Positions 39,683-61,379 are shown, counted from the stretch's first letter. The stretch: 64,000 nt of DNA from Cyanobacteriota bacterium (GCA_046052125.1 JBJOMY010000003.1:192001-256000), one strand, 5' to 3'. Program-made: numbers and translations. The notes: generated by a model from the sequence alone, not told the origin.

Positions 39683-40678
39683 ATGACCCCCTATCCCGAC
39701 TATCCAACCCCCGCTGATGAGGAGCAGCGGCTGCGGGCGCTGCGGCGCTTCGCTGTTCTGGATACCCCTTCCGATCCCCACTTCGATCGGATCGTGGCCT
39801 TGGCGTCTGAGGTGCTGGGGGTGCCGATCGCCTTGGTGTCGCTAGTGGATCAGGATCGCCAGTGGTTTTTGGCGCGGCATGGTTTGGAGGTGCAGGAGAC
39901 ACCGCGCACCATGGCCTTCTGTGCCCATGCCATTGCCCAGCACGATCTGTTTGAAGTGCCCGATGCGCTCGACGACGAGCGCTTCAACACCAACCCTTTG
40001 GTGCTCAACCCCCCCAAGGTGCGCTTCTACGCCGGCGTGCCGCTGCAATCCGAGCAGGGTCACAACTTGGGCACGCTCTGCGTGATCGATTGCAAACCGC
40101 GGGTGCTCGATCCCCATCAGCGGGTGATGTTGCAGCTGATGGCCGATCTGGTGATGCGGGAGCTGGAGCTGCGGCAGCGCAGCATGCAATGCCCGGTGAC
40201 TGGTCTTTACAACCGCAGTGTGTTTTTTCGCTTTGGCGAATTGGAGTTTGAGCACGCCCGCGACGAGAGCCTGCCGTTGGCGCTGTTCAATTTCGACATC
40301 GATGACTTTCGCCAGATCAACATGCGCTGGGGGCATCAGGCGGGGGATCAGGTGTTGCTCGATCTTTGCGCTGTTGCCCAGCAGCAACTCAGCCCGGATG
40401 ATCTATTCGGCCGCATCGGGGATGAGGAGTTTTCAATCCTGCTGGTGAATGCCTCCATCTCAAGGGCGAACCAGCTGGCTGAAGAGATCCGGCTGGCCAT
40501 TGCCGGTATGCGGGGCATTTTTGATCACTCCGATTACCACCCCAACATCAGCGGCGGGATCACGGCCCTGGCGGATAGTGATCAGAGTTTTGCGGATCTC
40601 TTTTACCGCGCCGATCAAGCGCTGTACCTGGCCAAAGGCAATGGCCGCAATCAGATTGCTTCACTGCAGGTGGAATGA
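39683..40678 (+). CDS. GAF-GGDEF domain protein (active-site motif GDEEF)
   Basis: GAF: EE.RL.AL..LDT, FCAHAI, RFYAGVPL; GGDEF: TGLYNR, DIDDF..IN..GH.AGD, RIGDEEF, ADQALY.AK..GRN. Confidence 0.92.
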   Translation: MTPYPDYPTPADEEQRLRALRRFAVLDTPSDPHFDRIVALASEVLGVPIALVSLVDQDRQWFLARHGLEVQETPRTMAFCAHAIAQHDLFEVPDALDDERFNTNPLVLNPPKVRFYAGVPLQSEQGHNLGTLCVIDCKPRVLDPHQRVMLQLMADLVMRELELRQRSMQCPVTGLYNRSVFFRFGELEFEHARDESLPLALFNFDIDDFRQINMRWGHQAGDQVLLDLCAVAQQQLSPDDLFGRIGDEEFSILLVNASISRANQLAEEIRLAIAGMRGIFDHSDYHPNISGGITALADSDQSFADLFYRADQALYLAKGNGRNQIASLQVE

Positions 40679-42444: not shown

Positions 42445-43554
42445 TCACCCCGGCATCAGGCACCAACCGCCGTCCTGGCGCTGGCAGCGCCAGCCGCTGG
42501 GGCAGAGATCGAGGCCCATCTGCCGCTCGAGCAGTTGGCGATCCGCCGCCGATGGCTCCCTCAGCTGGAAGCCCCGCAGCTGAAACGGTTGCAGCCTCAG
42601 GCTCAGCAGCTGGCCGCTCTGCCGCTGCAGCTCCAGGCCGTAGAGGCAGATCAGATCGCATCGCCAGGGGGGATGCGGCGGCAGGCCTTCGTAGTCGTTG
42701 ATTAGATCACCGCAGCCGTAGAGGATCAGCCGGCCCTGATGGATCTCCAGGGGCAAGGCGTGGTGGGAGGAATGGCCATACACCACATCAACGCCCGCCA
42801 GCTCGATCAGTTGGCGCGCCAGCCAGCGGTGCTGCTCTGGCACCACCGGCACCCAGTTGGCACCCCAGTGCAGCGACACCACCACGCGATCACCCACCTG
42901 GCGTTGGCGGTTGATGCAGCGGCAGAGCCATTTCACGGTGCCGCTGTTGATGGTGCTCAGCAGCGCCACACCGGGATGGTTCGGTTGGGCGGCCCAGGCT
43001 GGGGGCACGCCACTGCTGGTGAAGGCCCAGGCGAAGAGCAGGAGCTGCCGGCCATCGGCAAGGGCTAAGCGGGCGGGTTGCTTGGCCTGGTGGGGGTTGA
43101 GCCCGGCGCCGCAGCTGGCGATGCCGGCCTGGTGTAGGGCCCGGAGCGTGTCGGCCAGGCCGTTGAAGCCCCAGTCGAGGCAGTGATTGTTGGCGAGGCT
43201 GCAGGCATCGATGCCGGCCGCCCGCAGGCTGGCGATGTTGGCGGGGTGCATGCGGAAGTGCACGCCTTTGCCGGGCCACGGCTGGCCGCCGCTGGTGATC
43301 GCGGTTTCCAAGTTCACGACCCGCAGCTCGGGGTCAAAGCGCTGGATCCAGCTCAGGCTGTCGCCCCAGACGCGCTCCGGGCTGAAGGGTGTGGCGATCG
43401 GCCCGATTCGCTGTTCCGCCAGAGCCACGTAGTGACGTGCATCGCGGGCGACGGTTTCGTGCAGGGCTGGATCGCAGTGCTGGGGCATCAGTTGGTCGAT
43501 GCCGCGCCCGAGCATCAGATCGCCCCCCAGCAGGAGCTTCAGGGCTGCGGGCAT
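42445..43554 (-). CDS. CapA family protein (Rv0574c-like metallophosphoesterase fold)
   Basis: GGDLMLGRGIDQ, VNLETAIT, RMHP.N, LANNH.LDWG, SLHWG.NW, GHSSHH, YGCGDLINDYEG. Confidence 0.92.
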   Translation of the reverse strand: MPAALKLLLGGDLMLGRGIDQLMPQHCDPALHETVARDARHYVALAEQRIGPIATPFSPERVWGDSLSWIQRFDPELRVVNLETAITSGGQPWPGKGVHFRMHPANIASLRAAGIDACSLANNHCLDWGFNGLADTLRALHQAGIASCGAGLNPHQAKQPARLALADGRQLLLFAWAFTSSGVPPAWAAQPNHPGVALLSTINSGTVKWLCRCINRQRQVGDRVVVSLHWGANWVPVVPEQHRWLARQLIELAGVDVVYGHSSHHALPLEIHQGRLILYGCGDLINDYEGLPPHPPWRCDLICLYGLELQRQSGQLLSLRLQPFQLRGFQLREPSAADRQLLERQMGLDLCPSGWRCQRQDGGWCLMPG

Positions 43555-44344: not shown

Positions 44345-44563
44345 GTGACTGCTCGCAAACAGCTTTCGATGGTGTTGCCGGCTGAGCTGATTGAGGCGAT
44401 CAAGCAGCGCGCCACGGCTCAGGGGCTGAGCATCACCGCTTACATGTCGGCGCTGGTGCGCGCGGATTTGGGTCAGCCTGCATCGCCTGATCTGCATCAG
44501 CTGGCACAGCAGCTCGATGAGCTCCAGGCCCGTGTGGACGAGCTGGAGCGGTTGTGTCGCTGA
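44345..44563 (+). CDS. Ribbon-helix-helix regulator with coiled-coil tail
   Basis: QLSMVLP, RA..QGLSITAY, leucine-zipper C-terminus. Confidence 0.75.
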   Translation: MTARKQLSMVLPAELIEAIKQRATAQGLSITAYMSALVRADLGQPASPDLHQLAQQLDELQARVDELERLCR

Positions 44564-44647
44564 GACCTTGAGGAAGCTCTTGATCGCTGTAGATCTGTTG
44601 TAGAACTGCGGCGCGCCGTTTTTGGGTTGGTGGCTGACTTCTCGACG

Positions 44648-44803
44648 ATGCGGGTAAGCCGTAGCAGCCGGATCAGCGTGAACCTCACCCCAGAAGAGCT
44701 GGCTCAGTTCCAAGCCGTTGCTGATGCTGAGGGGCGCAGTGTGAGCAACCTTTGCCATCAGCTGATCCAGGCCTTTCTGGCGCAGCGCAACAGCTCCGAT
44801 TGA
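44648..44803 (+). CDS. Ribbon-helix-helix (RHH_5-like) regulator, 51 aa
   Basis: Hand-translated MRVSRSSRISVNLTPEELAQFQAVADAEGRSVSNLCHQLIQAFLAQRNSSD. Confidence 0.78.
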   Translation: MRVSRSSRISVNLTPEELAQFQAVADAEGRSVSNLCHQLIQAFLAQRNSSD

Positions 44804-45542: not shown

Positions 45543-45737
45543 TCACTGGATCTGGGGCCGTTGTAGTGGGGTGTGTGTGCTGCTTGTGCGGCGTTCCAGC
45601 GAGCTTTCGAGCAGGTAGGCCGCCAGGTTGCTGATCGAGCGACCTTCGCGGCCGCTGCGTTCCACCAGGGCCTCGAGGGTGGAATGGGCCACGGTGATCG
45701 TGAGGCGCTGGCTGGAGCGGAAGCTGCTGGAGATCAT
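45543..45737 (-). CDS. Ribbon-helix-helix (RHH_5-like) regulator
   Basis: RLTITV strand, EGRSISNLAAYLLE; paralogous to 37696..37977. Confidence 0.8.
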   Translation of the reverse strand: MISSSFRSSQRLTITVAHSTLEALVERSGREGRSISNLAAYLLESSLERRTSSTHTPLQRPQIQ

Positions 45738-46848: not shown

Positions 46849-47348
46849 GGATCGAGGTGTGTGGGGCTATCCATGGCCTACGGCTGTCGGGCGGCTTCAG
46901 CGCACCGCGAGCAGTTGTCGCGTCAGATCGACTGCATCTCGGCGGCTATGGCCGATGGCTACAGCACCGAAGAACCGGCTTTGCTGCCTGGCTCTGCCAG
47001 AGCTGCCGGGCTGCCTACAAGCTGAAGGCTGAGCCGTTCAGCCAGGGTCATCTCTGCTTCGGAGACTGCGTAGCAGGCCAGGACCGCTCCAGGTCTCAGC
47101 GTTTGGTGGTGAGGCCACGGGCTGAATGGTCGTTGAGGCTGATGCAGTGCAATCGGTCTTGATACCAGCTTGCTGGCGCAGCTGGCAGCAAATGAAGAAC
47201 AGCATCCAGGCACACATCGCTGATGGGCACGGCCGTGGCCATGAACACGCGACGCTCTGGATGCTGTAGGTGGCGCAGTGCGATCAGATGGCGTTCAGGC
47301 CAACATTCCACGCCAGGGATACTGGTCAGCGGACACGGCTGAGCGAAC

Positions 47349-48059
47349 TCAGATCAAAATGAACTGGTCGGCTGTGATCAGCGGCGCACCCTCAAAGATG
47401 GCGAAGAGTCCACCCTTGTCACCAAAGCCTTTGTCCTCAGCGTTGGCGTTGAAATACAGCCGGTGGGCTGACTCATCATAGATGATGTCTGCATCGGTTT
47501 TCGATGCGCGCCTAAGTTGCTTGCCAGACGAAACACTTTTGAACTCGAGATCGTCAATTCCCTTGAACACGCGGCGAGACAGCTCCAGTTTGTCGCCATT
47601 GGATCCATTGAATCCCATGATTCGATCCACACGCCGGATACCCTTCTTCCGGAAGTAATCCGGAGAATCGAAGCGCAGGTGCAATCCATTACGTTGCAAG
47701 CTTGTGTTTCCTGGGCTTCCGGACAGCGTGCCACCTGGATTTGCCGCAGTTGCTGGGATGCTGCCGCTGTTGCTTGTACTCATATTGTAGTTATGAGTAA
47801 TTGAATTATACTCCTGTGTGGTTGAGCTTAATTGGTAGTTGTAGATGATGGTGTTGGTTGAATAGTCGATTGTTGAGAGAACAGCAACCTGGTTGCCATT
47901 TGATGTATTTGTGTAGCCATTTCCTGTGATCGGGTCCACGGGAGCGGCCGCACTGGTGTCTGCTGGCAGGAGCGGGCCAGCAACTGCAGTTGAAGTTGGT
48001 TCGGCTGGGGTTACTGGTTGTTCTGTGTTGTCAGTGGCTTCTGGAAAGGACTCGCTCAT
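47349..48059 (-). CDS. Probable type I secretion cargo protein
   Basis: Low-complexity T/S/N-rich N-terminal half; C-terminal DKLEL..F, IIYD...LYFN.N....FG..GG.FA...G.P....QF resembling cyanobacterial RTX-type C-termini; follows HlyD. Confidence 0.65.
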   Translation of the reverse strand: MSESFPEATDNTEQPVTPAEPTSTAVAGPLLPADTSAAAPVDPITGNGYTNTSNGNQVAVLSTIDYSTNTIIYNYQLSSTTQEYNSITHNYNMSTSNSGSIPATAANPGGTLSGSPGNTSLQRNGLHLRFDSPDYFRKKGIRRVDRIMGFNGSNGDKLELSRRVFKGIDDLEFKSVSSGKQLRRASKTDADIIYDESAHRLYFNANAEDKGFGDKGGLFAIFEGAPLITADQFILI

Positions 48060-48167
48060 GCCGTGAGTGGTTGCGTGAATGACCTTCAAAAGCTATTGAT
48101 CCTCCTGTTGTCTGATGGCTAGAAACTGCATCAGGTGATGGGCGAAGTTGCCGCACTCTTGTTCAAG

Positions 48168-49439
48168 TCAAGCGCCGCTGAGTAGGCGTAGCTTGGTGAA
48201 GAGAAAGCCGAGAACAGTTGTCTGGCGAGTGATGATCTCTGCCTGCACATCCATGCCATGCCTTAAAGAGCAAGTGCGGTTTGCAGATCGCAGCTCTGTT
48301 GTTGAAGGTTTGAGTGAGATCTGGAAAAGTCCTGCTCCGGTAGGCTGGCTCGATTGACCCTGAGCTGCATCGTTTTGTAGGGTGTCGGCAGAGATATTGA
48401 CCACTTTCGCTTTGAGAACACCGTAGTCTGGATAGGGGCATCCAGTGATGCGTAGGTAAGCGTCCTGGCTTGATCTGATGTTGCCGATGTCTCGGCTGGG
48501 GATGCGCACTTGAATCATTTGGGCGGCATCCTTTGGTGCAATCTTGGCAAGAATCTCACCTGCTCTGATCACCTGCTGAGCGTGGCGCATGCCGCTCACC
48601 AACACAGTACCGGCTGTGGGCGCTTTGATCGTGCTATTGATTAGTGCTCTGTTCACCTCCGCGAGTCGCGCGCGCGTGGATTCTAGTAATTTATTTAACT
48701 CTCGATTCTGGTTGGATGTCTTTCCGCGGTCTTGCCTCATTCCTGCGAGCTGAGCGGTTCCCCGCGCACGCTGTTCTTGCATGGCCTGGCGTGCTTTCGC
48801 CAACTCATTCGATGCCAGTTGATACTGTGCCTTCTTCTCATCCACAACACTGGCTGAAACAGCACCAGTGGTGAGCAGGCTTTGATAACGCTGCAGCTCT
48901 GTCTGCCTGAAGTGCAGGGTGGCACTGGCGTTATCAACGTCTCGAGAAGCGGATACGAGTTGGGCGCGGAGGAGTTCTGATGTCGCTGCACTCTGCTGTA
49001 TCAAATCGTTGGCCTGACCGATGCTGCTCTGTTGCTGTGCGATCGATTCATGCAATTCACTTTCTAATTTCTTCTTTTCATTTTCGAGTTGTCGCCGATC
49101 CAGTGCTGCCAGGGCTTGCCCCTTCCTTACCTCTTGATTCTCTTTAATCCATACGGCTGCCAAGCTCCCATCCAGTTGACTTTGGACAACCGTGTTCTCA
49201 CCGTAGGGCCGAACAACCCCAGCAGCACGAACGGTTTCGCGCCATGGCCAGATCGCTAGGCCAATCAGTCCGGCAGTTGCTGTGATGAGCGCATTGCGTC
49301 CTAACGAGTGACTCCAGCGTCCCAGTGATGGTAAAAAGTCGTCTGTGGCGACCAGCATGATCGCCATATCCTGATCAGCGCGTGCTTCAGGTGCGCTGGG
49401 TTTGTTTGATTGTTGTTGAAGATCGAGATTGCTCATCAT
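48168..49439 (-). CDS. HlyD family type I secretion membrane fusion protein
   Basis: TM, VRAAGVVRP, V...ENQ.V.KGQ, IKAP.AG, PYPDYG.L, GM.V.AEI. Confidence 0.93.
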   Translation of the reverse strand: MMSNLDLQQQSNKPSAPEARADQDMAIMLVATDDFLPSLGRWSHSLGRNALITATAGLIGLAIWPWRETVRAAGVVRPYGENTVVQSQLDGSLAAVWIKENQEVRKGQALAALDRRQLENEKKKLESELHESIAQQQSSIGQANDLIQQSAATSELLRAQLVSASRDVDNASATLHFRQTELQRYQSLLTTGAVSASVVDEKKAQYQLASNELAKARQAMQEQRARGTAQLAGMRQDRGKTSNQNRELNKLLESTRARLAEVNRALINSTIKAPTAGTVLVSGMRHAQQVIRAGEILAKIAPKDAAQMIQVRIPSRDIGNIRSSQDAYLRITGCPYPDYGVLKAKVVNISADTLQNDAAQGQSSQPTGAGLFQISLKPSTTELRSANRTCSLRHGMDVQAEIITRQTTVLGFLFTKLRLLSGA

Positions 49440-51667
49440 CAGCTTGCCGATAAGTAAGGGGAAACAAGTAGGCTTTCTTGTAGAGCACTTGGTTGGTCTT
49501 GCTGTTTCACCTTCCCTTGATCGATATAGATGATCCAATCAGCACGAAGGATGACGGAGGGTCTGTGGCTCACCATGATGGTTGTTTTCCCTTTTCGATG
49601 TGTGAGCAGCTGATTCATCAGGCGCTGTTCAAGCACTGGATCCAGTGCGGAGGTTGATTCGTCTAGGATCACCACAGGTGGGTCGTTGATCAAAGCCCGA
49701 GCCAGGGCTAATCGTTGCCGTTGCCCTCCTGAAAGATTGGCTCCAAACTCGCCAAGAACTGTTCCATAGCCATCGGGTAGCTCTCGGATAAAATCATCAG
49801 CCAATGCAAGCCTGCACGCTTCTACAATCTCTGGAAAGCTAATGGCAGGATGGCTAAATACGAAATTCTCGTAGATGCTCCGATTGAAAAAGTGTGAGTC
49901 TTGAGGCACCAAGACAACTTGCCTTCGCAGGCATTCGAGGCTGAGGTCTCTTGAGCTGAAGGAACCGTAGTGAATGGTTCCTTGTTCCGGTGGATAGAAG
50001 CCAGCGATCAGCTTGCTGATGCTGCTTTTGCCACAACCCGACTGACCGATCAGAGCTGTTGTTAAACCACCTGGGATCTCGACACTGAATCCTTCGAGTA
50101 GTGCGCGACGGCCAGGGTAATGCCAGGTGATGTTCTCACATCTGATCGCAGCCTGAGGGCTAATCTGTGCGTAATGACGATTCTTGCTTAGTGCATCTTC
50201 CGGTTCTCTCTCCATCACCTCTGATAACCGCCGTAGGACAACGCCAGCTGTAATGGCTTCCTGGGAGATGGCGCTCAGTCCCGTCAGGAAGGCTAAAACG
50301 TTAGCCCCCATCCCGTTGAAGGCAAGAAGTTGCCCGATGCTCAGGTCATTGTTGATGACAAAGCTACTGCCATACCAAAGCAAGGCAATTGAGCCAAGAC
50401 CTCCTAGTAATCCAGTGGCTGTACTTTCGTTGAGGCGGAGTTGTGTGCCTGCCCAGCTGAGCCGTGCCAACCTGCCAAAGTTTCGCTGGTACTCCTGCCA
50501 GGCTTGTGGTGTTGCCTCTGTTGTTTTGAGTACCGTCGCTGCTCGAAACACTTCCACCAGATAACCCTGGTTGTCTGCTGCCCCGACCAGTAGTTGCTTT
50601 GTCTTCGTCTGAATAAGTGGTAAAAAGCAGAGATTGCATACCACTACAGCTGTGTAGCACGCGACCGCGGCGATAGCCAAAGGTGCTGAGTAGGCGATCA
50701 TCCAGACCAAAGAAATTGCTGCGATGCATAGCTGGCTCGGTAGGCCGGTAACGACGGCGGTCAACAGCTCGTTGATCTTCTGAATGTCACTGATACGACT
50801 AACAACTTCACCGCTTCGATGGCTTTCAAAGTAGTTGATTGGTAGGCGAAATAAGCGTTGGCCATAATGCAGAATCATCTGCAGCTGCAGTTTCTGGCCA
50901 AAGTGCCCCACCATCTGTCCCTGCACCCAGCCCAGTCCATGGCGGAGTGCAGTGAGCAGCATGATTCCAATGCTCAGCGCCGCGAGCATATGAGTATCTC
51001 CTCTGACCAGCACATCGTCGGTCAGGATCTGCATGAGTACAGGCATGCCTAGGGCGAGGCTGCCGATCACAACATTGAGCAGTAAGGCCTGAGTTAATAG
51101 GCCTTTAAAGGGCTTCACGAACTGGGTGAAGATCCAGATCCCTGGCGTGCCTTTGTCTTCCTCATTCTGAGTAAATCTGGCGGGATCTGGTTCCAGTAAT
51201 AGAAGCACCCCATTCTGCCAATGGTGGAGGAACTCGCGATCACTGAGTTCACGAAGTCCAACTGCAGGGTCAGCTACAACAAGCAGCTGATTCTGATTGC
51301 GGCCATGTAAGACGACCCAGTGGTTGCCGTTCCAATGGCAAATGACAGGGAGTGGTACTTCGTTAATCGATTCAAGTATCGATTCGTCAGCCTTTGCTGC
51401 ACGAGCTATGAGCCCCAGCTGCTCAGCTCCCCGTTTCAGTCCAAGGAGCGTGGTGCCGTTGGCCATAGTGCCGACGGCTTCTCGCACGTTGCCAATGCTC
51501 ACGGCACGACCGTGTTGCGCGCAGATCGTTGCAATGCAGGCTGCTCCGCAGTCCTCTTCGCTGAATTGTCGAACGCAGGCAAATTGCCGTTGCTGATGCG
51601 TCAGGAATTGGCGAAGGCCGTTATGCAAGGTCTTGATTCTGTCCTTGCTGAACATCTGAAGGGGCAT
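49439..51667 (-). CDS. C39 peptidase-containing ABC transporter (PCAT, PteB/SunT-type)
   Basis: Q..EEDCGAAC Cys, HWVV His, DPA; Walker A GQSGCGKS, LSGGQRQR, ILDESTS; start may be 51694 or 51655. Confidence 0.95.
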   Translation of the reverse strand: MPLQMFSKDRIKTLHNGLRQFLTHQQRQFACVRQFSEEDCGAACIATICAQHGRAVSIGNVREAVGTMANGTTLLGLKRGAEQLGLIARAAKADESILESINEVPLPVICHWNGNHWVVLHGRNQNQLLVVADPAVGLRELSDREFLHHWQNGVLLLLEPDPARFTQNEEDKGTPGIWIFTQFVKPFKGLLTQALLLNVVIGSLALGMPVLMQILTDDVLVRGDTHMLAALSIGIMLLTALRHGLGWVQGQMVGHFGQKLQLQMILHYGQRLFRLPINYFESHRSGEVVSRISDIQKINELLTAVVTGLPSQLCIAAISLVWMIAYSAPLAIAAVACYTAVVVCNLCFLPLIQTKTKQLLVGAADNQGYLVEVFRAATVLKTTEATPQAWQEYQRNFGRLARLSWAGTQLRLNESTATGLLGGLGSIALLWYGSSFVINNDLSIGQLLAFNGMGANVLAFLTGLSAISQEAITAGVVLRRLSEVMEREPEDALSKNRHYAQISPQAAIRCENITWHYPGRRALLEGFSVEIPGGLTTALIGQSGCGKSSISKLIAGFYPPEQGTIHYGSFSSRDLSLECLRRQVVLVPQDSHFFNRSIYENFVFSHPAISFPEIVEACRLALADDFIRELPDGYGTVLGEFGANLSGGQRQRLALARALINDPPVVILDESTSALDPVLEQRLMNQLLTHRKGKTTIMVSHRPSVILRADWIIYIDQGKVKQQDQPSALQESLLVSPYLSAS

Positions 51668-51713
51668 GGGCTCTGCCGAAGTGCTCTTGCGCAAAGGCCA
51701 ACAGTGGCCATTG

Positions 51714-51742
51714 AGAAAGGAGGTCTCATAGGTGAGACCTCC
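51714..51742 (-). terminator. Stem-loop between peptide gene 2 and the PCAT gene
   Basis: GGAGGTCTCA-tagg-TGAGACCTCC perfect 10-bp stem followed by TTTCTC on the minus strand. Confidence 0.55.
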
Positions 51743-51768
51743 ACTTAGTAGCTCAGGATTTCAGTGCT

Positions 51769-51981
51769 TCATCCCAGCCAGTTCTTGCCAGCAAGCAGAT
51801 CCATGAGTGTTGTGTTAATGGAGCCTGTGTTGCCTTGACCCACCATGGCGGTGCCTTCTAGCAGGCCTACAGCCGTTCCGACGTTGACCGGTGTGATGAC
51901 TCCCAGGTTGATGCTGGGGAGCACAAGAGCGTATCCACCACCGCTGATGGCTTCGCACTGATGATCGTTCAGGAATTGCAT
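51769..51981 (-). CDS. Double-glycine leader secreted peptide 2 (70 aa)
   Basis: MQFLNDHQCEAISGG leader, then a Gly/Val/Asn-rich core; adjacent to the PCAT. Confidence 0.82.
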   Translation of the reverse strand: MQFLNDHQCEAISGGGYALVLPSINLGVITPVNVGTAVGLLEGTAMVGQGNTGSINTTLMDLLAGKNWLG

Positions 51982-52001
51982 TGTTTTGTTGGAAAATGCT
52001 G

Positions 52002-52026
52002 AAAAAAGGGACCGACAAGCGGTCCC
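52002..52026 (-). terminator. Rho-independent terminator after peptide gene 1
   Basis: Minus strand GGGACCG-cttgt-CGGTCCC-TTTTTT, 8 nt after the stop codon. Confidence 0.75.
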
Positions 52027-52033
52027 GATCTGA

Positions 52034-52258
52034 TCAGAACAGGCTGACGATGACGTTGTAGATGTCAGCGTTGTTGCCCTGGATGGTGCTGGCGAGGGCA
52101 CCGCTGTTGCTCAGGCCGAGCAGGGTGTTGGAGGTGCCGCCAACGGCCCAAGCAGAACCGATATTGCTTTGGCCGATGGCGTTGTAGTTGGCGCCAAAGT
52201 ACACGCCGCCAGTCACCACTTCGCTTTGTGCGTCGGTGAGGAGTTCCAGTTTGGTCAT
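52034..52258 (-). CDS. Double-glycine leader secreted peptide 1 (74 aa)
   Basis: MTKLELLTDAQSEVVTGG leader (L-T-D-x-Q-x-E-x-V-x-GG), Cys-free Asn/Gly/Ser-rich core. Confidence 0.85.
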   Translation of the reverse strand: MTKLELLTDAQSEVVTGGVYFGANYNAIGQSNIGSAWAVGGTSNTLLGLSNSGALASTIQGNNADIYNVIVSLF

Positions 52259-52458: not shown

Positions 52459-52881
52459 ATGGATCCTGGTGCCCTGCGCTTGGGAGCTCTTTGGGCTGCC
52501 TGGCTTTTTGTGATGCTGTTCCATGTGGAGCTTGGCTTAATGCCGCTCTTTCATGGCTTTTCTGTGGAAATCAAGAGCCAGGTCAGTGTCACTCGCTTGC
52601 CGCGTATCTTCTTCGCAATGCTGGTGTATTTCCTAATCCCTGTTCTTGCAATGCTTCTGGCTTTTCATGCGGTTTCAGGCCCTATCGCCTGGAGTGGTGC
52701 ATCTGGCTGGAGAGCGGCTCAGTTCTGGCTAAGCGCCATGTATAGCGGCACAAACGTTGCTCATCTGATCGCTGATATCAAAATTCCCGATGCACGGATG
52801 GATCAGGTTGTGTTGATGCTGGTCCTGACCCTGATTGGTTTGCTCCTGAATTGGCAAGCCTGGCTCTGGTGGCAAGGGTGA
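52459..52881 (+). CDS. Four-TM hypothetical membrane protein
   Basis: Four hydrophobic segments; GTGA overlap with the ZIP gene. Confidence 0.75.
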   Translation: MDPGALRLGALWAAWLFVMLFHVELGLMPLFHGFSVEIKSQVSVTRLPRIFFAMLVYFLIPVLAMLLAFHAVSGPIAWSGASGWRAAQFWLSAMYSGTNVAHLIADIKIPDARMDQVVLMLVLTLIGLLLNWQAWLWWQG

Positions 52882-53633
52882 CGACTTTCTCTGTCATCGT
52901 GTTGGGTTCGCTACTGATGAGTGTGATTGCGCTTGTTGGTGCCATCACCATCGTTCTGCCACCCCGACGCCTTCAGCAACTCCTGATTCCGCTGGTATCG
53001 CTTGCCGCTGGTTCACTGATGGGTGGTGCTCTATTTCACATGATCCCCGAGAGTTATGGGGCCATGGATGCGCGTGTCGCAGGATTTTGGGTGGGTGCTG
53101 GATTTACGTCCTTTTTGGGGTTGGAGATCGTTTTGCATTGGCATCATTCTCATCGCAATCGTCAACACGGCCTTGGCACCCTGCTCAGGCTCGATCGCGA
53201 GCCTTTGGCCTTGTTGATCTTGATCGGTGATGCTCTCCACAATTTTATCTGTGGTATTGGCATTGCTGGCACCTATCTGATTGATCCTGCTTCGGGAGTT
53301 GCAGCTTGGCTGGCTGCGGCAGCCCACGAGATCCCTCAGGAGCTCGGTGACTTCGGGGTGTTGTTACACAGCGGCTGGTCGCGTCGCCGTGCATTGGCTT
53401 GGAATTTCATTTCGGCCCTTAGCTTCCCGCTGGGAGCTTTGCTGGCTTGGCGTTTTCAGGCCGTTTTGCCCTTGGCCCCCTTGGTGCTCTTGGCAGCAGG
53501 AAACTTTCTCTACATCGCGGCTTCCGATCTGGTTCCCGAAATCAAGGCTCAGGATTCCTTGTTGCAGGCCTTGACCAGCTTTTCCTGGTTTGCCGGCGGC
53601 CTGCTGGTGCTTTGGTTGCTTGCTTCAGTCTGA
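52878..53633 (+). CDS. ZIP family metal transporter
   Basis: AAG.L.G..LFHMIPE, His loop HWHHSH, GDALHNF, HEIPQELGDF, FLYIAASDL.PE. Confidence 0.93.
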   Translation: MTTFSVIVLGSLLMSVIALVGAITIVLPPRRLQQLLIPLVSLAAGSLMGGALFHMIPESYGAMDARVAGFWVGAGFTSFLGLEIVLHWHHSHRNRQHGLGTLLRLDREPLALLILIGDALHNFICGIGIAGTYLIDPASGVAAWLAAAAHEIPQELGDFGVLLHSGWSRRRALAWNFISALSFPLGALLAWRFQAVLPLAPLVLLAAGNFLYIAASDLVPEIKAQDSLLQALTSFSWFAGGLLVLWLLASV

Positions 53634-54454: not shown

Positions 54455-55489
54455 TCAACAGATGCGCGGCAGCTGTTCACCTCGCTGTAGCTCCAGCGGC
54501 CTGAGGACACCCAATCCGTTGCGCAGACTCACTGGATGCCGCCGATTAACCCCTGTCATCCGAGCTGATGCCGCTTGCACAACTCCGATCCTGTCGGCAT
54601 CGCGTTGGTGACGTCGCAGCACCGATAGAGCGCGTTCCGCATCAGCCTGGGGGCACATCACCAGCATGCGACCTTCATTCGCCATCGCCAGCGGATCCAG
54701 GCCCAGCAGATCGCAGGCGCTCCGTACAGGTTTGCTGAACGGAATCGAGGTTTCGTCGAGTTCCACCGTGCACTGTGCTCCCCTTGCGATTTCGTCAATG
54801 GCGCTGGCCAACCCGCCGCGCGTGAGATCCCTGAGGCAGTGCAGCGCTATCCCTTCAGCGAGTAAGTCCTGCACCGTGCTGTGCAGTGGTGCCAGGTCGC
54901 TCTCAAGCGCGCAGCGAAATCCCAGCTCCTGCCGTGCCATCAGGATCGCTACGCCGTGTCGTCCGAGATCGCCACTCACCAGCACCGCATCGCCTGGCTG
55001 TAGAGCCGATGGATGGATGGTTTGCCCGTGCTCCACCACCCCAATGGCGCTGGTGTTGATGAAGAGCCCATCGCCCTTGCCCCGCTCCACCACCTTGGTA
55101 TCGCCCGTGATCACCTTCACACCGCACTGATCAGCCGCCGCTCGGATCGAATCCACCACCCGCTGCAACGTGGCGATTGGCAAGCCTTCCTCCACGATTA
55201 GTCCCAGGCTCATTGCAGCGGCTTTGGCACCCGCCATGGCTAGATCGTTCACGCTTCCAAAGACAGCCAGGCGGCCGATGTCGCCTCCCGGGAAGAACAA
55301 CGGTCTCACCACGTAGGAGTCGGTGGTGAAGGCCAACTGCTGCCCAGGGCTTGCGAACACCGCGGCATCGTGCAGTACGCCATCCGCTGGTCCGAAGGCC
55401 GGCAGCAAGAGCTCCTGAATCAGCTGCTGGCTCAACCGCCCACCTCCACCGTGAGCCAGTTGGATCGTGGCATTGTTAGCTCCCATCAT
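54455..55489 (-). CDS. hypE: Hydrogenase maturation protein HypE
   Basis: LAHGGGG, TTDSYVV.PLFFPGGDIG, GDTKVV, RDLTRGG, ANEG, C-terminal PRIC. Confidence 0.97.
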   Translation of the reverse strand: MMGANNATIQLAHGGGGRLSQQLIQELLLPAFGPADGVLHDAAVFASPGQQLAFTTDSYVVRPLFFPGGDIGRLAVFGSVNDLAMAGAKAAAMSLGLIVEEGLPIATLQRVVDSIRAAADQCGVKVITGDTKVVERGKGDGLFINTSAIGVVEHGQTIHPSALQPGDAVLVSGDLGRHGVAILMARQELGFRCALESDLAPLHSTVQDLLAEGIALHCLRDLTRGGLASAIDEIARGAQCTVELDETSIPFSKPVRSACDLLGLDPLAMANEGRMLVMCPQADAERALSVLRRHQRDADRIGVVQAASARMTGVNRRHPVSLRNGLGVLRPLELQRGEQLPRIC

Positions 55490-56563
55490 TCAGCGTTGGT
55501 AGCGGTAGTAGGCCGCGCAGGCTCCTTCGCTCGACACCATCGGCGCCCCCATGGGTGCATCGGGTGTGCAGCGGGTACCAAAGCTTGGGCAATCACTGGG
55601 CCGGAGCAGGCCCTGCAACACCAGACCACTCGGGCATGTTTCTGGCGTTGCGGCAGTGCTGCTGGCGCTCGTTCCTTGTGCTCGGTGTACCGCCAACCGA
55701 TCGAATGGCGCCCTCAGCTGATAACCGCCGGCTCGAATCAGGCCTAGCCCCCTCCAGCGCGTGTCCACAGGTTCAAACACCTCCCCCAACAGCCGCTGGG
55801 CGCCTGGATTGCCGCCGCTTCTCACCGCGTTGACGTAGGCGTTCTCCAGTTGATGTCGGCCACTCTCGAGTTGCCGAACACAGCGCAGGATTCCCTGCAG
55901 CAACTCCTCCGCTGTGAAGCCGGTGATCACCACCGGCCGCTGATGCTTCTGCACCAGGGTCTTGAGTTCAGCGTCTCCCAGCACCGTGCACACGTGGCCG
56001 GCCGCTAACACCCCTTCCACGGCGCAGGCGGGATCGCTCAACAGCTGATCCAACACTGGGGCGACTCGCACATGGGCCACCAGCAGCTGCAGGTTGGACA
56101 ACCCTGCTGTTAAGGCCTGCTGTGCCAGAAGGGCTGTGGCTGGTGCGGTGGTTTCAAAGCCAACGGCGAAGAACACCACATGGCGGCCGGGATGTTGCCG
56201 GGCCAGGGTCAGCACATCCAACGGCGCGTAGACGATCCGCACATCTGCACCGACGGCGCGCAGGCTCAGCAGATCGCTGCCGGTGCTGCCAGGTACCCGC
56301 AGCATGTCGCCATAGGTGCACAGGATCACCCGTGGATCTTGCGCCAGAGCCAGGGCCTGGTCGATGCGCTCAAGAGCTGTGACGCACACCGGGCAGCCGG
56401 GGCCGTGGATCAGGGTGATCGCTTCAGGAAGGAGCTGATCGATGCCATGGCGCAACAGGGCGTGGGTTTGGCCGCCGCACACCTCCATCAGCGTCCAGGG
56501 CCGGCTGCACTCGGCATGGATCTGCTGGAGCAGCTCGCTGGCGGTGGTGTTCGCGCTGCTCAT
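55490..56563 (-). CDS. hypD: Hydrogenase maturation protein HypD
   Basis: MEVCGGQT, HGPGCPVC, GFETT, GHV, MVSSEGACAAYY. Confidence 0.97.
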   Translation of the reverse strand: MSSANTTASELLQQIHAECSRPWTLMEVCGGQTHALLRHGIDQLLPEAITLIHGPGCPVCVTALERIDQALALAQDPRVILCTYGDMLRVPGSTGSDLLSLRAVGADVRIVYAPLDVLTLARQHPGRHVVFFAVGFETTAPATALLAQQALTAGLSNLQLLVAHVRVAPVLDQLLSDPACAVEGVLAAGHVCTVLGDAELKTLVQKHQRPVVITGFTAEELLQGILRCVRQLESGRHQLENAYVNAVRSGGNPGAQRLLGEVFEPVDTRWRGLGLIRAGGYQLRAPFDRLAVHRAQGTSASSTAATPETCPSGLVLQGLLRPSDCPSFGTRCTPDAPMGAPMVSSEGACAAYYRYQR

Positions 56564-57579
56564 GTCTCGGACAGCCAGGGCGTGCTGTAGCTGCTTAACG
56601 CCCTCAGGTACTGCGCGCGCTCAAAGGCTTCGGGGTTCGGGCAGCGCTGCTGGCTGAGGCTGCCCCGCAGGGTTTCCAACTCGTGAACGTCGTGCTCGAG
56701 CAGCCACTGCATCAGCTCAGCGTGCATGCGCTCCAGCTGTCCGGGCCCATGGCGCAGCAGGGCACTCACCACTTGCGTCACCTGGGCACCCACCATCAGC
56801 ATGCGCACCACATCGGCGCCTGTGCTGATGCCGGTGCTGGCGGCGAGCTCCAGATCCACCCGGCCGTGCAGCAATCCGATCCAGCGCAGTGGTAGCCGTT
56901 GTTCTCCGGCATGGCTGAGCTCCAGATGGCTGTCGGTCTCAAGGGTGTCGATGTTCACCTCCGGTTGCAGGAATCGGTTGAACAGCACCAGGGCTCCGGC
57001 ACCAGCCAGCTGCAGCTGGCGAGCCATGGATGCCAGGGCCGTGTACCAGGGGCTGAGTTTCACGGCCACAGGCAGGCGGGTTGCGCTGCACACCTGGCGA
57101 ACGATCGCGATCTGTTCGGCTTCCAGCTCGGCACTGCTGCGGTTGGTGTCGCTGGGCACGCTGTAGAGATTGAGTTCGATCGCTGCTGCTCCCGCCTGCT
57201 CGATGGCGACGGCCGCGGATTGCCAGTGAGCGGGATGGTTGCCATTGAGGCTGGCGATCACCGGAATCGATAGAGCCTTGCTGGCCCTTTGGACCTCTTC
57301 GAGGTAGCCATCGAGGCCCAGATGGTGTGGTGTATTGGCCGGGACGTAGCTGATGGCTTCCGCGTAGCTCTCGCTGCCGTGCTGTTGGTGGTGAAGCCAC
57401 TCCTGCCAGTCGCGCTCGATCTGCTCCAGAAACAGCGAGTGCAACACGACCGCTCCGGCTCCTTCTCGCTCCAGTTGCACCAGGCGCTCCAGATCGGTGC
57501 TGAGTGGAGCAGCCGCACCCACCACCAGCGGTGAAGGCAACTCCAGACCCAGATAGCGCGTGGCCAGGGAGATGGTCAT
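56560..57579 (-). CDS. Dihydroorotate dehydrogenase-like FMN protein
   Basis: T.YLGL.L.SP, SLF.EQI, IASLNG, IELN, VKLSP, LVLFNRF.QP, LRWIG.L; start MTISLA overlaps the nifJ stop. Confidence 0.9.
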   Translation of the reverse strand: MTISLATRYLGLELPSPLVVGAAAPLSTDLERLVQLEREGAGAVVLHSLFLEQIERDWQEWLHHQQHGSESYAEAISYVPANTPHHLGLDGYLEEVQRASKALSIPVIASLNGNHPAHWQSAAVAIEQAGAAAIELNLYSVPSDTNRSSAELEAEQIAIVRQVCSATRLPVAVKLSPWYTALASMARQLQLAGAGALVLFNRFLQPEVNIDTLETDSHLELSHAGEQRLPLRWIGLLHGRVDLELAASTGISTGADVVRMLMVGAQVTQVVSALLRHGPGQLERMHAELMQWLLEHDVHELETLRGSLSQQRCPNPEAFERAQYLRALSSYSTPWLSET

Positions 57580-60500
57580 GGGGCAGGCTCGCCGGCTTGA
57601 GCCAGGCGTTGGTAGAGATCCCAGCGCTGCTTGAGCTCCTGCTCCGCTTGGCGCGTGAGCATGCGCGCTTGCTCTGGATCGCTGTAGCGCAGCATCCGAA
57701 AACGGTTTTCGCTGGCCATCGCTTCGGCCAGGGGCACGCTGGGGCTGCGGGAGTCGATGCTCAGGGGCGGCAATCCAGCTGCGGCGCGGCGTGGGTCGTG
57801 GCGATAGAGCAACCAGCGGCCGGCATCCACTGCCTGCTTCTGCTGCGCCATGCCCTTGGCCATGTCGATGCCGTGGGCGATGCAATGGGAGTAGGCCAGG
57901 ATCAGCGAGGGGCCGGGGTACGACTCCGCTTCCAAGAAGGCTCGCAGCGTGTGCTCGTCGCGGGCGCCCATGGCCACGCTGGCCACATACACGTGGCCGT
58001 AGGTCATCGCCATCAAGCCGAGGTCCTTCTTGCCGGTGGTTTTGCCGCCGCTGGCGAACTTGGCAACTGCGCCCTTCGGCGTGGCCTTCGACATCTGTCC
58101 GCCGGTGTTGGAGTACACCTCCGTGTCGAGCACCAGCACATTCATGTCGTGGGTGCTGGCGAAGAGGTGATCGAGACCACCGAAGCCGATGTCGTAAGCC
58201 CAGCCATCGCCGCCCACGATCCACACACTGCGCTTCACCAGATCGTCGGCCAGATCCAGGAGTTCGCGTGCCAAGGGCGCATTGGGGTCAGGAGCGTCGC
58301 TTTGTTCCGTCAGAGCCTGCAGCGCCAGCTTCAGGGCGGTGACCCGTTCGCGTTGCTCATGGATGCCTGCTTCATCGATCTGCTCCGCCTCCAGTAGGCC
58401 TGTGATCAAAGTGCTCGGTAGCTGGCCTGCCAGGGCGCGCAGCAGCCGTTCGGCGCGGCGGCGGCGCTGATCGAAGGCCACTCGGAACCCCAACCCGAAT
58501 TCGGCGTTGTCTTCAAACAGCGAATTGCTCCAGGCGGGGCCGCGCCCCTCGCCATTGCTGCTCCAGGGAGTGGTGGGAAGGTTGCCGCCGTAGATCGACG
58601 AGCAGCCGGTGGCGTTGGCGATCACCATGCGATCGCCGAACAGCTGGCTGGCGAGCTTGAGGTAAGGCGTTTCGCCGCAGCCGGCGCAGGCGCCTGGGAA
58701 TTCGAACAGGGGCTGCTGCAGCTGTTGTTGGTTGATGTGCTGCAGGTTGAGGCTGCGGCGATCCAGCTCCGGCAAACCCAGGAAATAGGCCCAGTGCTCG
58801 CGGCTCTGCTCACGCAGGGGCCGCTGCGGTGCCATGTTCAGCGCCTTGCGCCGGGGCTCGCTGCGATCGCGGGCTGGGCAGACCTCCACACAGAGGTTGC
58901 AGCCGGTGCAGTCTTCCGCTGACACCTGGATCGTGAAGCTTTGGCCTCTCCAGTGGTGGTCGCGGGCCGGCGCCGTGCGGAAGCCAGGGGGTGCGGTTGC
59001 CAGCTGCTCTGGCTCAGCAACCTTGGCCCGGATCACGGCATGGGGACACACCATCACGCACTTGCCGCACTGCACGCAGAGATCGGGCTCCCACACCGGT
59101 ACCTGCTCGGCGATGTTGCGCTTCTCCCAGCGACTGGTTCCTGTGCTGAAGCTGCCATCACAGGGGATGGCGCTCACGGGGAGCTGATCGCCGCGGCGCT
59201 GCAGTTGGGGGAGCAGTAAGTCCTGCAACTCAGCGGGGGCGGCCGCCAGGCCAGCGGGGATGGGCAGCTCGCTCAGAGGTGCTTCCGCCATGAGCGGAGC
59301 GGCGTCGGCGGGGACTGTCAGTTCCTGCAGGCCACTGCGGGCTGCCTCCATGGCTGCGAGGTTCGCCGCCACCACCTGATCCCCCTTGCGCCCATAGCTC
59401 GTTTGGATCGCCGAGCGCATCGCCAGTAGCGCCTGCTCCAGCGGCATCAGGTCTGCCACGGCGAAAAAGGCCACCTGCATCACCGTGTTGATGCGTCCTC
59501 CCAGGCCGTGCTCGCGGGCGATCGAGGCGGCATCCACCACAAACACCCGCAGCCGCTTGCGCTGGATCAGCTGCTGCACTCGCTCTGGCAGCTGCGACCA
59601 ACACTGGTCCGCTGGCCAGGGTGCGTTGAGCAGCAGCGTTCCGCCTGGGGCAGCCAGCTCCAGGAGGTCGAATTGCTGGAGAAAGTCCCAGTGGTGACAG
59701 GCCAGGAGCTGGGCCTGCTGGATCAGGTGGCTGGCTTCAATCGGCCGCGGGCTAAACCGCAGGTGCGACACCGTGACCGAGCCGGCCTTCTTGGAGTCGT
59801 ACACGAAGTAGCCCTGGCCGTGGAGACCCGTGGCGTCGCCAACGATCTTGAGGGTGTGCTTGTTGGCACCCACCGTGCCGTCGGAACCCAGACCCACAAA
59901 CACCGCCCGCAGTGTGTCGGCCGTTTCGATCGCAAAGCCAGCGTCCACCGGCAGCGACAGTTGGGTGACGTCGTCGTGGATCCCCACCGTGAAGTGCCGG
60001 CGTGGCTGATCGGCGGCGAGGTTGTCGAACACCGCCTTCACCATCGCCGGTGTGAACTCCTTCGAGGCGATCCCGTAGCGGCCGCCCACCACCAGGGGCA
60101 TATCGGCCGTGGGCCAGTGTTCGCAGACGGCCGCCAGGACGTCGAGGTAGAGCGGTTCACCCTGGCTGCCCGGTTCCTTGCAGCGATCCAGCACGGCGAT
60201 CCGCCGGGTGCTCCGCGGCAGGGCCGCCACCAGGGCGTCCCCGGCCAAGGGGCGGAACAGCCGCACCTTCAGCACTCCCACCCGCTCGCCGGCTGCGAGT
60301 AGCGCCTCAGCTGTGGAGCAGGCGGTGCTGCAACCGCTCCCCATCAGCACGATCACCCGCTCAGCTTCAGGGTGCCCCTGGTAGTCGAACAGGTGATAAC
60401 GGCGACCGGTGAGTGCCGCGAACTGATCCATCGCCGCCTGCACATGGGCAGGCAGTGCGTTGTGGAAGGGGTTCACAGCTTCCCGGGCTTGGAAGGCCAC

Positions 60501-61172
60501 ATCCGGGTTCTGGCTGGTGCCCCGCAGCGCTGGATGATCGGGTGAAAGGCCCCGGGCCCGGTGGGCTGCCACCAGGGTCTCCGGCACCAGAGCCATCAGC
60601 ACCGCATCGCTGATCAGCTCCACCCGCTGGATTTCGTGGGAGGTGCGGAAGCCATCAAAGCTGTGCAGCAGCGGAAGCCGCCCCGCCAGGCTGGCGGCTG
60701 TGGCGATGGCGGCGAAGTCGCCGCACTCCTGCACCGACGCTGCGAACAGCATCCCCCAGCCGGTGCTGCGGGCCGCCATCACATCGCTGTGGTCGCCGAA
60801 GATCGAGAGGGCTGAGGTGGCCAGCGCCCGTGAGGCCACATGGATCACCGCGGCGGTGAGCTCTCCAGCAATCTTGTAGAGGTTGGGCAGCATCAACAGC
60901 AAGCCCTGCGATGCGGTGAAGGTGGTGGTGATGGCTCCGGCCTGAAGGGCGCCGTGCACCATGCCGGCGGCACCGCCCTCGCTCTGCATTTCCACCACCT
61001 GGGGCACCTGGCCCCAGAGATTGGGGCGCCCTTCACTGGCCCAGGCATCCGCCCATTCTCCCATCGGCGAGGCGGGGGTGATCGGGTAGATCGCCATCAC
61101 TTCGTTGAGCCGGTAGGCGACCCGCGCGGCCGCTTCGTTGCCATCGAGCCAGGCCAGCTCGCTGGTGCTCAT
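57576..61172 (-). CDS. nifJ: Pyruvate:ferredoxin/flavodoxin oxidoreductase
   Basis: DGNEAAA, YPITP, EMQSEGGA, two CxxCxxC ferredoxin motifs, GACAGCGE, GGDGWAYDIG; start MSTSEL overlaps the hypC stop. Confidence 0.97.
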   Translation of the reverse strand: MSTSELAWLDGNEAAARVAYRLNEVMAIYPITPASPMGEWADAWASEGRPNLWGQVPQVVEMQSEGGAAGMVHGALQAGAITTTFTASQGLLLMLPNLYKIAGELTAAVIHVASRALATSALSIFGDHSDVMAARSTGWGMLFAASVQECGDFAAIATAASLAGRLPLLHSFDGFRTSHEIQRVELISDAVLMALVPETLVAAHRARGLSPDHPALRGTSQNPDVAFQAREAVNPFHNALPAHVQAAMDQFAALTGRRYHLFDYQGHPEAERVIVLMGSGCSTACSTAEALLAAGERVGVLKVRLFRPLAGDALVAALPRSTRRIAVLDRCKEPGSQGEPLYLDVLAAVCEHWPTADMPLVVGGRYGIASKEFTPAMVKAVFDNLAADQPRRHFTVGIHDDVTQLSLPVDAGFAIETADTLRAVFVGLGSDGTVGANKHTLKIVGDATGLHGQGYFVYDSKKAGSVTVSHLRFSPRPIEASHLIQQAQLLACHHWDFLQQFDLLELAAPGGTLLLNAPWPADQCWSQLPERVQQLIQRKRLRVFVVDAASIAREHGLGGRINTVMQVAFFAVADLMPLEQALLAMRSAIQTSYGRKGDQVVAANLAAMEAARSGLQELTVPADAAPLMAEAPLSELPIPAGLAAAPAELQDLLLPQLQRRGDQLPVSAIPCDGSFSTGTSRWEKRNIAEQVPVWEPDLCVQCGKCVMVCPHAVIRAKVAEPEQLATAPPGFRTAPARDHHWRGQSFTIQVSAEDCTGCNLCVEVCPARDRSEPRRKALNMAPQRPLREQSREHWAYFLGLPELDRRSLNLQHINQQQLQQPLFEFPGACAGCGETPYLKLASQLFGDRMVIANATGCSSIYGGNLPTTPWSSNGEGRGPAWSNSLFEDNAEFGLGFRVAFDQRRRRAERLLRALAGQLPSTLITGLLEAEQIDEAGIHEQRERVTALKLALQALTEQSDAPDPNAPLARELLDLADDLVKRSVWIVGGDGWAYDIGFGGLDHLFASTHDMNVLVLDTEVYSNTGGQMSKATPKGAVAKFASGGKTTGKKDLGLMAMTYGHVYVASVAMGARDEHTLRAFLEAESYPGPSLILAYSHCIAHGIDMAKGMAQQKQAVDAGRWLLYRHDPRRAAAGLPPLSIDSRSPSVPLAEAMASENRFRMLRYSDPEQARMLTRQAEQELKQRWDLYQRLAQAGEPAP

Positions 61173-61360: not shown

Positions 61361-61379
61361 GGCGTGCAGCCTGCGGGGA

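Follow-up and report, generated by a model that had tools for sequence, protein, structure and literature searches.

A Cyanobiaceae family of twin-QxN double-glycine peptides beside a C39 exporter, with a possible structural role outside the cell

The 64,000-nucleotide stretch of cyanobacterial DNA described here (GCA_046052125.1 JBJOMY010000003.1:192001-256000, in our numbering G000:C3:192001-256000; hereafter the window, with positions counted from its first letter) carries on its minus strand, at 47349-52258, a cassette of five genes in the order pepA, pepB, PCAT (a peptidase-containing ATP-binding cassette transporter), HlyD and p246. The cores of its two small peptides belong, judged by sequence, to a previously undescribed, Cyanobiaceae-restricted family that is built on a single module with twin Gln-x-Asn (QxN) motifs. 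Systems of this kind are known; what is new is the peptide family with its module. We consider the anatomy of the cassette and the logic of export secure, but not its function; we favour a self-associating structural or matrix role for the exported peptides, to which we would assign a probability of roughly 0.45, that is, a little under even odds.

Cyanobacteria commonly carry double-glycine peptide clusters, which are as a rule classed as "bacteriocins", and according to the papers cited here the sole unmodified example to have been studied, EbfG/PteB, proved to be a biofilm matrix system. To this we add a second family of peptides, unrelated to EbfG and paired with a homologous exporter; it is confined to Cyanobiaceae, strongly conserved and apparently abundant in lake and river metatranscriptomes. 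Should self-assembly prove true, these peptides would provide a molecular handle on the aggregation and microcolonies of freshwater picocyanobacteria, as well as a minimal one-repeat model of a functional amyloid; as toxins, on the other hand, they would be the first allelopathic peptides of the microcin type from picocyanobacteria.

The source genome (2.64 Mb in 10 contigs, 99.96% complete) is that of a freshwater picocyanobacterium of the family Cyanobiaceae, and the closest named relative of the locus is a Vulcanococcus metagenome-assembled genome (L005). An earlier reading of the window (hereafter the sequence-only reading) had described two double-glycine-leader peptides followed by a C39 PCAT, an HlyD and one further gene, and this layout is indeed present on the minus strand. 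The first gene, pepA (52034..52258), encodes a precursor of 74 amino acids (aa) in which an 18-aa double-glycine leader, MTKLELLTDAQSEVVTGG, precedes a 56-aa core of the A type. The second, pepB (51769..51981), encodes 70 aa when read from the ATG at 51981, with the leader MQFLNDHQCEAISGG and a B-type core of 54/55 aa; its mechanically called open reading frame (ORF) opens further upstream at a GTG, and its homologues are 67-72 aa long. The genes of the cassette are translationally coupled or lie close together, and their GC content is 52.8% versus 64.5% for the remaining window.

A peptide family with one shared module

The sequence-only reading had portrayed both cores as free of Cys and poor in charges, with two motifs in common, and all of this is borne out. 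Neither core contains Cys, the net charge of each is -1, and there is almost no Asp, Glu or Lys. The predicted unmodified average masses are 5667 Da for the PepA core and 5483 or 5426 Da for the PepB core (5.4-5.7 kDa in all), and the grand average of hydropathy (GRAVY) is 0.40-0.67. Compared alone by BLASTP, pepA and pepB give no significant match (E 0.052). When 12 A-type cores are aligned with 12 B-type cores by hhalign the probability is 90.5% (E 1.4e-6 over 38 columns), and the alignment pairs NYNAIGQSNIGSAW with NLGVITPVNVGTAV and ASTIQGNNADIY with AMVGQGNTGSIN, which are exactly the motifs that had been claimed. The two genes encode paralogous double-glycine-leader precursors.

A family-wide genome scan, after which 17 loci were fetched, provided an alignment of 37 cores from 15 loci (alignment A3). 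These cores share one module of approximately 40 residues, which reads h-h-x-Q-x-N-h-G-x-A-h-A, then a Gly-rich loop, then a C-terminal A-x-x-x-Q-x-N-x-(S/A)-x-h-h-N-h-h. Positions N14, Q42 and N44 of A3 are invariant and Q12 is kept in 34 of the 37 cores; the conserved residues are Gln, Asn, Gly and Ala, the C-terminal strand is hydrophobic, and the neighbours of the QxN motifs are small (G/A). Core lengths across the family run from 40 to 81 aa, and the family profile finds, among 1.84 billion proteins, 39 representatives at E<=1e-3, which are 60-118 aa long and have the same style of leader.

In the relatives of the locus a homologous PCAT-HlyD pair is directly preceded by 2-4 genes for double-glycine peptides. 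Of the fetched stretches, 16 contain a PCAT ORF, and a regular expression for the leader picks up peptides in 14 of them; at L032 the peptide profile matches just upstream of the PCAT, and at L029 no family peptide was found within 4 kb. A hit of the pattern scan in a Chitinophagaceae genome (L006) was rejected as a false positive, being an unrelated 148-aa protein that shares QGNNADIY. Separately, L024 encodes at 9218-9487 (minus strand) a divergent double-glycine peptide with the leader MIYLLADADAQLICGG and a core rich in Gly, Asn and Ser, on the opposite strand and just upstream of the cassette of that locus.

Within Cyanobiaceae the family is held by 41 of 401 genomes and by 6 of 64 genera, at 1-6 copies per genome, and 13 of the 29 other genomes of the window's genus hold it. 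Outside Cyanobiaceae, 361 genomes of the class gave no score better than E 9.7e-4 (inside a 358-aa frame; matches not individually inspected), and in the class-level scan 33 of 400 other genomes gave a match at E<=0.1, these matches likewise not being individually inspected. Homologues of pepA fall into 6 clusters (70-92% identity) and those of pepB also into 6 (71-99%), and NCBI is absent from the listed sources of all of these close-homologue clusters (ENA, JGI and Logan; cluster P0007 lists none). Our search of the literature found no description of a twin-QxN family, nor of a "tandem bacteriocin" that matches it. None of the 37 cores matches an amyloid-related Pfam family at E<=10, and the sole Pfam match of any kind at that threshold, to VgrG3 at 0.11, was set aside as chance.

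Given the family alignment, AlphaFold2 (AF2) predicts a core without helix, made of a pair of long strands (E3-21 and E37-55) that the Gly-rich loop connects. Between pepA and its orthologue at L021 the differences by codon position number 4/3/26, corresponding to 23 synonymous and 8 non-synonymous codons, and the last 38 residues are identical in spite of the 23 synonymous changes; pepA is under strong purifying selection. At L022, the pepA orthologue (2927-3175, plus strand; G355:C86) is split in two frames, the profile matching residues 1-46 and 48-74, which points to a frameshift pseudogene or to a fault in the assembly; pepB is undamaged at this locus, as is the exporter.

Export machinery and likeness to known systems

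The PCAT gene (49439..51694, minus strand; likely start ATG 51667, giving 742 aa) has Pfam matches to Peptidase_C39 (E 8.5e-34, residues 39-170), ABC_membrane (2.8e-30, 203-460) and ABC_tran (4.1e-28, 533-682), and to no domain family beyond these three. Residues 26-723 align to PCAT1 (4ry2) at E 1.5e-107, and the Cys of the DCGAAC motif is kept, as are the His and Asp motifs; these conserved Cys, His and Asp residues we take to be the catalytic triad. The catalytic triad of C39 domains is mentioned in PMC10233263. By these alignments the PCAT is complete, of the short type and intact in its set of C39 catalytic motifs, and it is the sole C39 match in the genome. The HlyD-type periplasmic adaptor (48168..49439, minus strand; likely ATG 49439, with the ORF extending to 49538) matches HlyD_3 (8.8e-14) and Biotin_lipoyl_2 in Pfam and type_I_hlyD in NCBIfam at 6.3e-42, the last under the curated cut-off, and a TGATG overlap joins the PCAT stop to the probable HlyD start at 49439. 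Identity to the exporters of the relatives is 61-85% for the PCAT and 39-70% for HlyD. Group III of the cyanobacterial "bacteriocin" clusters, as defined by Wang, Fewer and Sivonen (2011; PMC3140520), includes the present cassette, which has the PCAT domain set, an adjoining HlyD and adjoining double-glycine precursors, and no LanM, SurA or S8 peptidase. We infer that the peptides leave the cell through C39 cleavage and the PCAT-HlyD pair.

Metagenomes from fresh water, rivers and estuaries, sampled in 14 studies, contain the cassette. Four metatranscriptome runs, drawn from four studies, gave contig depths of 120-680 over pepA, 38-160 over pepB and 2.5-7 over PCAT/HlyD; contig depth is a poor measure, and so these values offer only a weak hint of high peptide transcript levels. 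Such levels are consistent with the hairpins that follow the peptide genes. One, with a T-run, lies directly 3' of pepA (52008..52026, minus strand; 7 pairs, 6 of them GC, T6) and is terminator- or attenuator-like, with a fold of -15.9 kcal/mol (z -2.8). The other, between pepB and the PCAT gene (51719..51742, minus strand), has a stem of 9-10 bp and a fold of -20.9 kcal/mol (z -3.7), with 0 of 200 shuffles equally stable; the terminator scan did not call it, on account of its short T-run. No RNA contig covers 52316-52512, from which we draw no inference.

The likeness to the ebfG1-4/pteB system (Parnasa 2016; Frenkel 2023) that the sequence-only reading had proposed is supported for the exporter and not for the cargo. 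EbfG1-4 are described as GG/GA-leader proteins needed for the biofilms of Synechococcus elongatus, with PteB as their PCAT (PMC4997328), and EbfG1-3 are reported to give amyloid signals in the C-DAG assay (curli-dependent amyloid generator), EbfG2 to form fibrils, and A-Phi-N-I-(G/S) to be the hotspot motif (PMC9981879). We located the ebfG locus in genome G430 by the published ebfG2 primer; the two primers and the two hotspot strings all occur in it (L076/L078). As in the window, tandem GG/GA-leader genes stand directly before a short-type C39 PCAT, followed by an HlyD-type gene; the PCAT directly after ebfG4 in L078 is 54% identical over 703 aa to that of the window (HlyD, 28.5%), both clusters fall in group III of Wang 2011, and the cores of both are free of Cys, rich in small and polar residues, and classed as unmodified. 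The EbfG cores, however, are not homologous to those of the window: hhalign of A3 against A5 returns a probability of 0.35% (E 0.17), and hmmsearch returns 3.8 bits or less. Furthermore, they lack the twin QxN module and carry instead the A-Phi-N-I-(G/S) hotspot, of which pepA has only the look-alike QSNIGS, and neither LAFNIG nor AQNIG occurs in any of the 39 profile matches. Likewise, tblastn finds no homologue of p246 at L076/L078. Biofilm and amyloid roles have been demonstrated for EbfG; for the window peptides such roles are proposed. As the exporters are homologous and the cores are not, the parallel is one of machinery and layout rather than of cargo sequence.

Functional amyloids such as curli (CsgA/CsgB), Fap and the chaplins consist of strand-turn-strand units with conserved Gln/Asn and Gly/Ala, have paralogous subunits and make use of dedicated export; curli subunits have five repeats and are exported by Sec and CsgG. 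The window peptides resemble curli in their strand-turn-strand units of Gln/Asn and Gly/Ala (predicted here), in their several paralogues and in having dedicated export. They differ in holding one module, in being exported, as we suppose, by a PCAT after leader cleavage, and in giving no Curlin_rpt match. The sequence-only reading had spoken of amyloid-type cores, and what survives of this is a strand-loop-strand module, conserved across the cores, whose two arms each have invariant Gln/Asn; no match to curli or to another amyloid family was found among the Pfam models searched.

A structural role weighed against other roles

In the structural role that we favour, the transcripts of pepA and pepB would be in excess over those of the transporter, the C39 domain would cleave the precursors after GG, and the PCAT-HlyD pair, with an unlinked outer-membrane channel, would export the unmodified cores of ~5.5 kDa. 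Once exported, the 2-6 paralogues of a genome would stack their hairpin or arch units through Gln/Asn ladders, giving rise to a material of the cell surface or matrix by which aggregation or adhesion is promoted, a mode of action like that of the PteB-exported EbfG1-3 without homology to them; more speculatively, p246 may be a co-secreted partner. We rank this reading first because the invariant twin Gln/Asn pairs are flanked by Gly/Ala in the predicted hairpin, because all paralogues share one module, because the core is under very strong purifying selection, and because no immunity gene travels with the cassette. It is tempting, and here we are more tentative, to view the twin-QxN peptides as a new class of single-repeat functional amyloid subunits, in which each core of 40-80 residues would be one beta-arch and the paralogues would co-polymerise via Gln/Asn ladders into surface fibres that drive the formation of microcolonies or aggregates in freshwater picocyanobacteria, with export by the PCAT instead of a route of the curli or Fap kind, and an origin independent of EbfG on a shared exporter scaffold.

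A number of observations weigh against a structural role. The search turned up no natural protein with the module in tandem repeat, each of the 39 profile matches holding a single one, and many members of the family are cationic (+3 to +7). The 37 cores give 0 Pfam matches at E<=0.1, Curlin_rpt included, and 0 matches to PDB sequences, and the cores of the demonstrated matrix system, EbfG, are unrelated to them as detailed above. The AF2 hairpin is of low confidence, with a predicted local distance difference test score (pLDDT) of 64.1 and a predicted template modelling score (pTM) of 0.31, and the other four models reach a pLDDT of 37.6-55.3. A small membrane protein gene, tm140, which has a low GC content like that of the cassette, adjoins the cassette in 5 of 6 loci of the genus and could encode an immunity protein, and its homologues in genomes that lack the peptides could be orphan immunity genes. 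A paralogue (39% identity) of an ATP-grasp gene that neighbours the cassette is present elsewhere in the genome, at G000:C1:523882-525237, so that a distant enzyme might modify the peptides. A microcin would fit the leader, exporter, size, hydrophobicity and charge equally well, and the patchy, low-GC (0.528 vs 0.645), island-like distribution also suits bacteriocins. Last, an oligomer prediction for four pepA cores with alignment A3 scored 0.01; having been run without controls, it counts for neither side.

Several of these points bear directly upon the proposal that the peptides are class IIa microcin-like bacteriocins, possibly of the two-peptide kind, which would inhibit competing picocyanobacteria at their membranes, the producer being protected by tm140, by the exporter or by an unrecognised gene. 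We regard this as rather unlikely, and the case for it is nonetheless a substantial one. The hallmarks given for class IIa microcins are a double-glycine leader, a PCAT with an adaptor, a size of 5-10 kDa, high hydrophobicity and a neutral or anionic charge (PMC10233263), with which the 5.4-5.7 kDa, the GRAVY of 0.40-0.67 and the net charge of -1 of the window cores agree, and class II microcins are reported to be widespread (PMC12219008). The likeness to the MccV type (CvaC, Cvi, CvaB, CvaA) extends to the double-glycine leader, the C39 PCAT with its motifs intact, the membrane-fusion protein and a hydrophobic peptide that is predicted to be unmodified. The occurrence in 41 of 401 family genomes is patchy, the GC content is low and the genomic position varies, many of the relatives are cationic, and tm140 adjoins the cassette, its homologues in genomes without the peptides being what one would expect of orphan immunity genes. 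Furthermore, the nearest named Atlas clusters by language-model features are "Bacteriocin" and the CTB family (0.82-0.84), which are leads only.

There are differences from the MccV type and from the CTB family, and a number of features speak against a microcin. From the MccV type the window departs in that the cassette itself contains no small membrane gene for immunity, that no relation to a curated family was found, and that the host is a cyanobacterium. The CTB family likewise comprises small, tandem-encoded cyanobacterial peptides and is a weak nearest named neighbour (language-model feature score 0.82), but its NCBIfam model, NF038167 (CTB family bacteriocin), through which this comparison was made, is not matched by pepA or pepB at E<=10; its Pfam 38.1 counterpart is PF28158 according to the Atlas. 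Of 19 peptides scanned with NF038167 one matches, at 13.3 bits versus a cut-off of 32, and that match takes in the leader. The extreme conservation of the core, with its last 38 residues identical over 23 synonymous changes, also tells against a toxin, as do invariant residues that are Gln, Asn, Gly and Ala rather than Cys, aromatic or charged. In addition, the one characterised unmodified cyanobacterial group III system is reported as not antibacterial (PMC4997328).

A search for an immunity gene among hydrophobic ORFs of 40-220 aa near the cassette, covering 15 loci, found no conserved small membrane ORF within it. A hydrophobic ORF of 56-65 aa between pepB and PCAT, seen in L023, L025 and L027, was rejected as a gene for want of a third-position bias: its differences by codon position are 15/12/11, 17/13/9 and 8/10/4, with non-synonymous changes far above synonymous ones, whereas pepA, as the control, shows a clear bias (4/3/26). 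The remaining "conserved" hydrophobic ORFs are alternative frames of PCAT, HlyD or the peptide genes. The five-gene unit of all 15 loci is accordingly without a credible immunity-type ORF, and the earlier statement that there was no obvious immunity gene holds inside the cassette; it must be tempered by tm140, the only conceivable candidate. This gene (52459..52881, plus strand) encodes a membrane protein of 140 aa with three hydrophobic segments and no Pfam family, lies divergently from pepA and ~200 bp upstream of it, and overlaps the start of a ZIP transporter gene. It is found at either end of the cassette depending on the locus and is missing from the L022 locus, and its homologues (53-55% identity) occur in 3 peptide-less genomes, in one of them between YkuD and MIF genes. 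This overlap and this mobility relative to the cassette count against a microcin, and tm140 is probably part of the genomic backbone.

We regard as improbable that the peptides have some other extracellular role without fibres or killing, whether as a signal or regulator, a hydrophobin-like surface coat, or an anti-grazer or anti-phage factor. Double-glycine leaders and PCATs also serve the export of pheromones (ComA structures are among the PDB matches), a LuxR-type response regulator lies 800 bp downstream and is also present in L021 and L043, and the peptides are abundant in environmental RNA contigs. However, cores of 40-81 aa with a conserved module of 40 residues are long for pheromones, the response regulator belongs to the backbone and in other genera does not accompany the cassette, and the cassette has no cognate histidine kinase.

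The fifth gene, mobility and neighbouring genes

The last gene of the cassette, p246 (47349..48059, minus strand), encodes 236 aa when read from the ATG at 48059, the 246-aa ORF spanning 47349-48089. The protein has an acidic Pro/Thr-rich N-terminus, a middle rich in Asn, Ser, Thr and Tyr, and a conserved C-terminal region of ~100 aa (alignment A4), and it matches no Pfam or NCBIfam family. Homologues of 43-59% identity lie directly after HlyD in L021, L022, L024, L026 and L043, and none was found at the loci of other genera. The peptide family bears no relation to it (hhalign probability 0.07%), and an AF2 model from 5 sequences is unusable (pLDDT 33.6). The sequence-only reading had named p246 a secreted cargo gene; a fifth gene is certainly present, but the protein has no double-glycine leader and is only a putative cargo, and the leads toward a type I C-terminus are weak. 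These leads are its Atlas neighbours, which are the C-termini of cyanobacterial RTX, Peptidase_M10_C and HemolysinCabind proteins (template modelling (TM) scores 0.51-0.56, feature scores 0.88-0.90). The C-terminal 103 aa have no paralogue in the genome, no longer relatives of p246 were found, and comparison with the C-termini of the genome's four RTX-type ORFs gave no significant match, only a short I-x-DF-x4-GD-x-L look-alike.

Another genus encodes giant proteins of 1000-1197 aa, with RCC1 repeats and a C-terminal DUF4114, directly upstream of 3-4 family peptides and beside ClpB (L028 10840-14343, minus; L030 1070-4072, plus; L031 3542-6934, plus; L037 3517-7110, plus), and these may be secreted partners.

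The backbone order around the cassette is hypE - p258 - ZIP - tm140 - ATP-grasp - p84. In the window and L021 the five genes separate tm140 from ATP-grasp; in L024, L026 and L043 they separate p258 from ZIP, and in L022 their neighbour is ClpB; in other genera the cassette is found beside ClpB and the giant RCC1/DUF4114 protein, beside FeoB, or beside a transposase. As the flanks vary between loci, the five genes move together, with no modification enzyme moving along. The ZIP-tm140 pair (52459-53633, plus strand, in the window) and the cassette swap order in L024, L026 and L043, and since both are of low GC (0.53-0.56), the low-GC island may be larger than the cassette.

The neighbouring ATP-grasp gene must be considered alongside the earlier assertion that no modification enzyme is present, which holds within the cassette but overlooks a frameshifted, truncated remnant of the pre-ATP-grasp/PGM1-like type that adjoins p246 at 46962..47353 (minus strand). 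This remnant matches residues 12-96 (62% identity) and 109-155 (66%) of a 466-aa protein of L005, and the intact relatives have the Pfam domains pre-ATP-grasp and PGM1_C. That the peptides are precursors of RiPPs (peptides made by the ribosome and modified after translation), modified before export by this enzyme or by its paralogue on contig 1, seems to us very unlikely. The proximity speaks for it, in the remnant itself and in L021, where an intact ATP-grasp gene follows p246 after 12 nt. Against it, the gene is decayed in the window, fragmentary in L026, absent from L043 and, though intact, separated from the cassette by ZIP-tm140 in L024, all of these loci having an intact cassette. In other genera the gene is not found close to the cassette, and the cores offer no Cys and almost no Asp, Glu or Lys to ester or amide cross-linking. 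The ATP-grasp neighbour is probably backbone and not part of the cassette.

Other genes of the window may be mentioned for completeness. A GAF-GGDEF diguanylate cyclase (39683-40678, plus strand) and a PGA_cap gene of the poly-gamma-glutamate capsule synthesis type (42445-43554, minus strand) are found 5-8 kb downstream of the cassette; genes of both types are tied to surface or aggregation behaviour, and any link to the cassette is conjectural. Between a PEBP gene and the LuxR-type response regulator are small CopG-like ribbon-helix-helix (RHH_5) ORFs (44345-44563, plus; 44627-44803, plus; 45543-45737, minus), and L032 has a similar RHH_5 ORF close to its cassette. The island is flanked by hypE, hypD and hypF together with a pyruvate:ferredoxin oxidoreductase of 1236 aa (54455-63704, minus strand).

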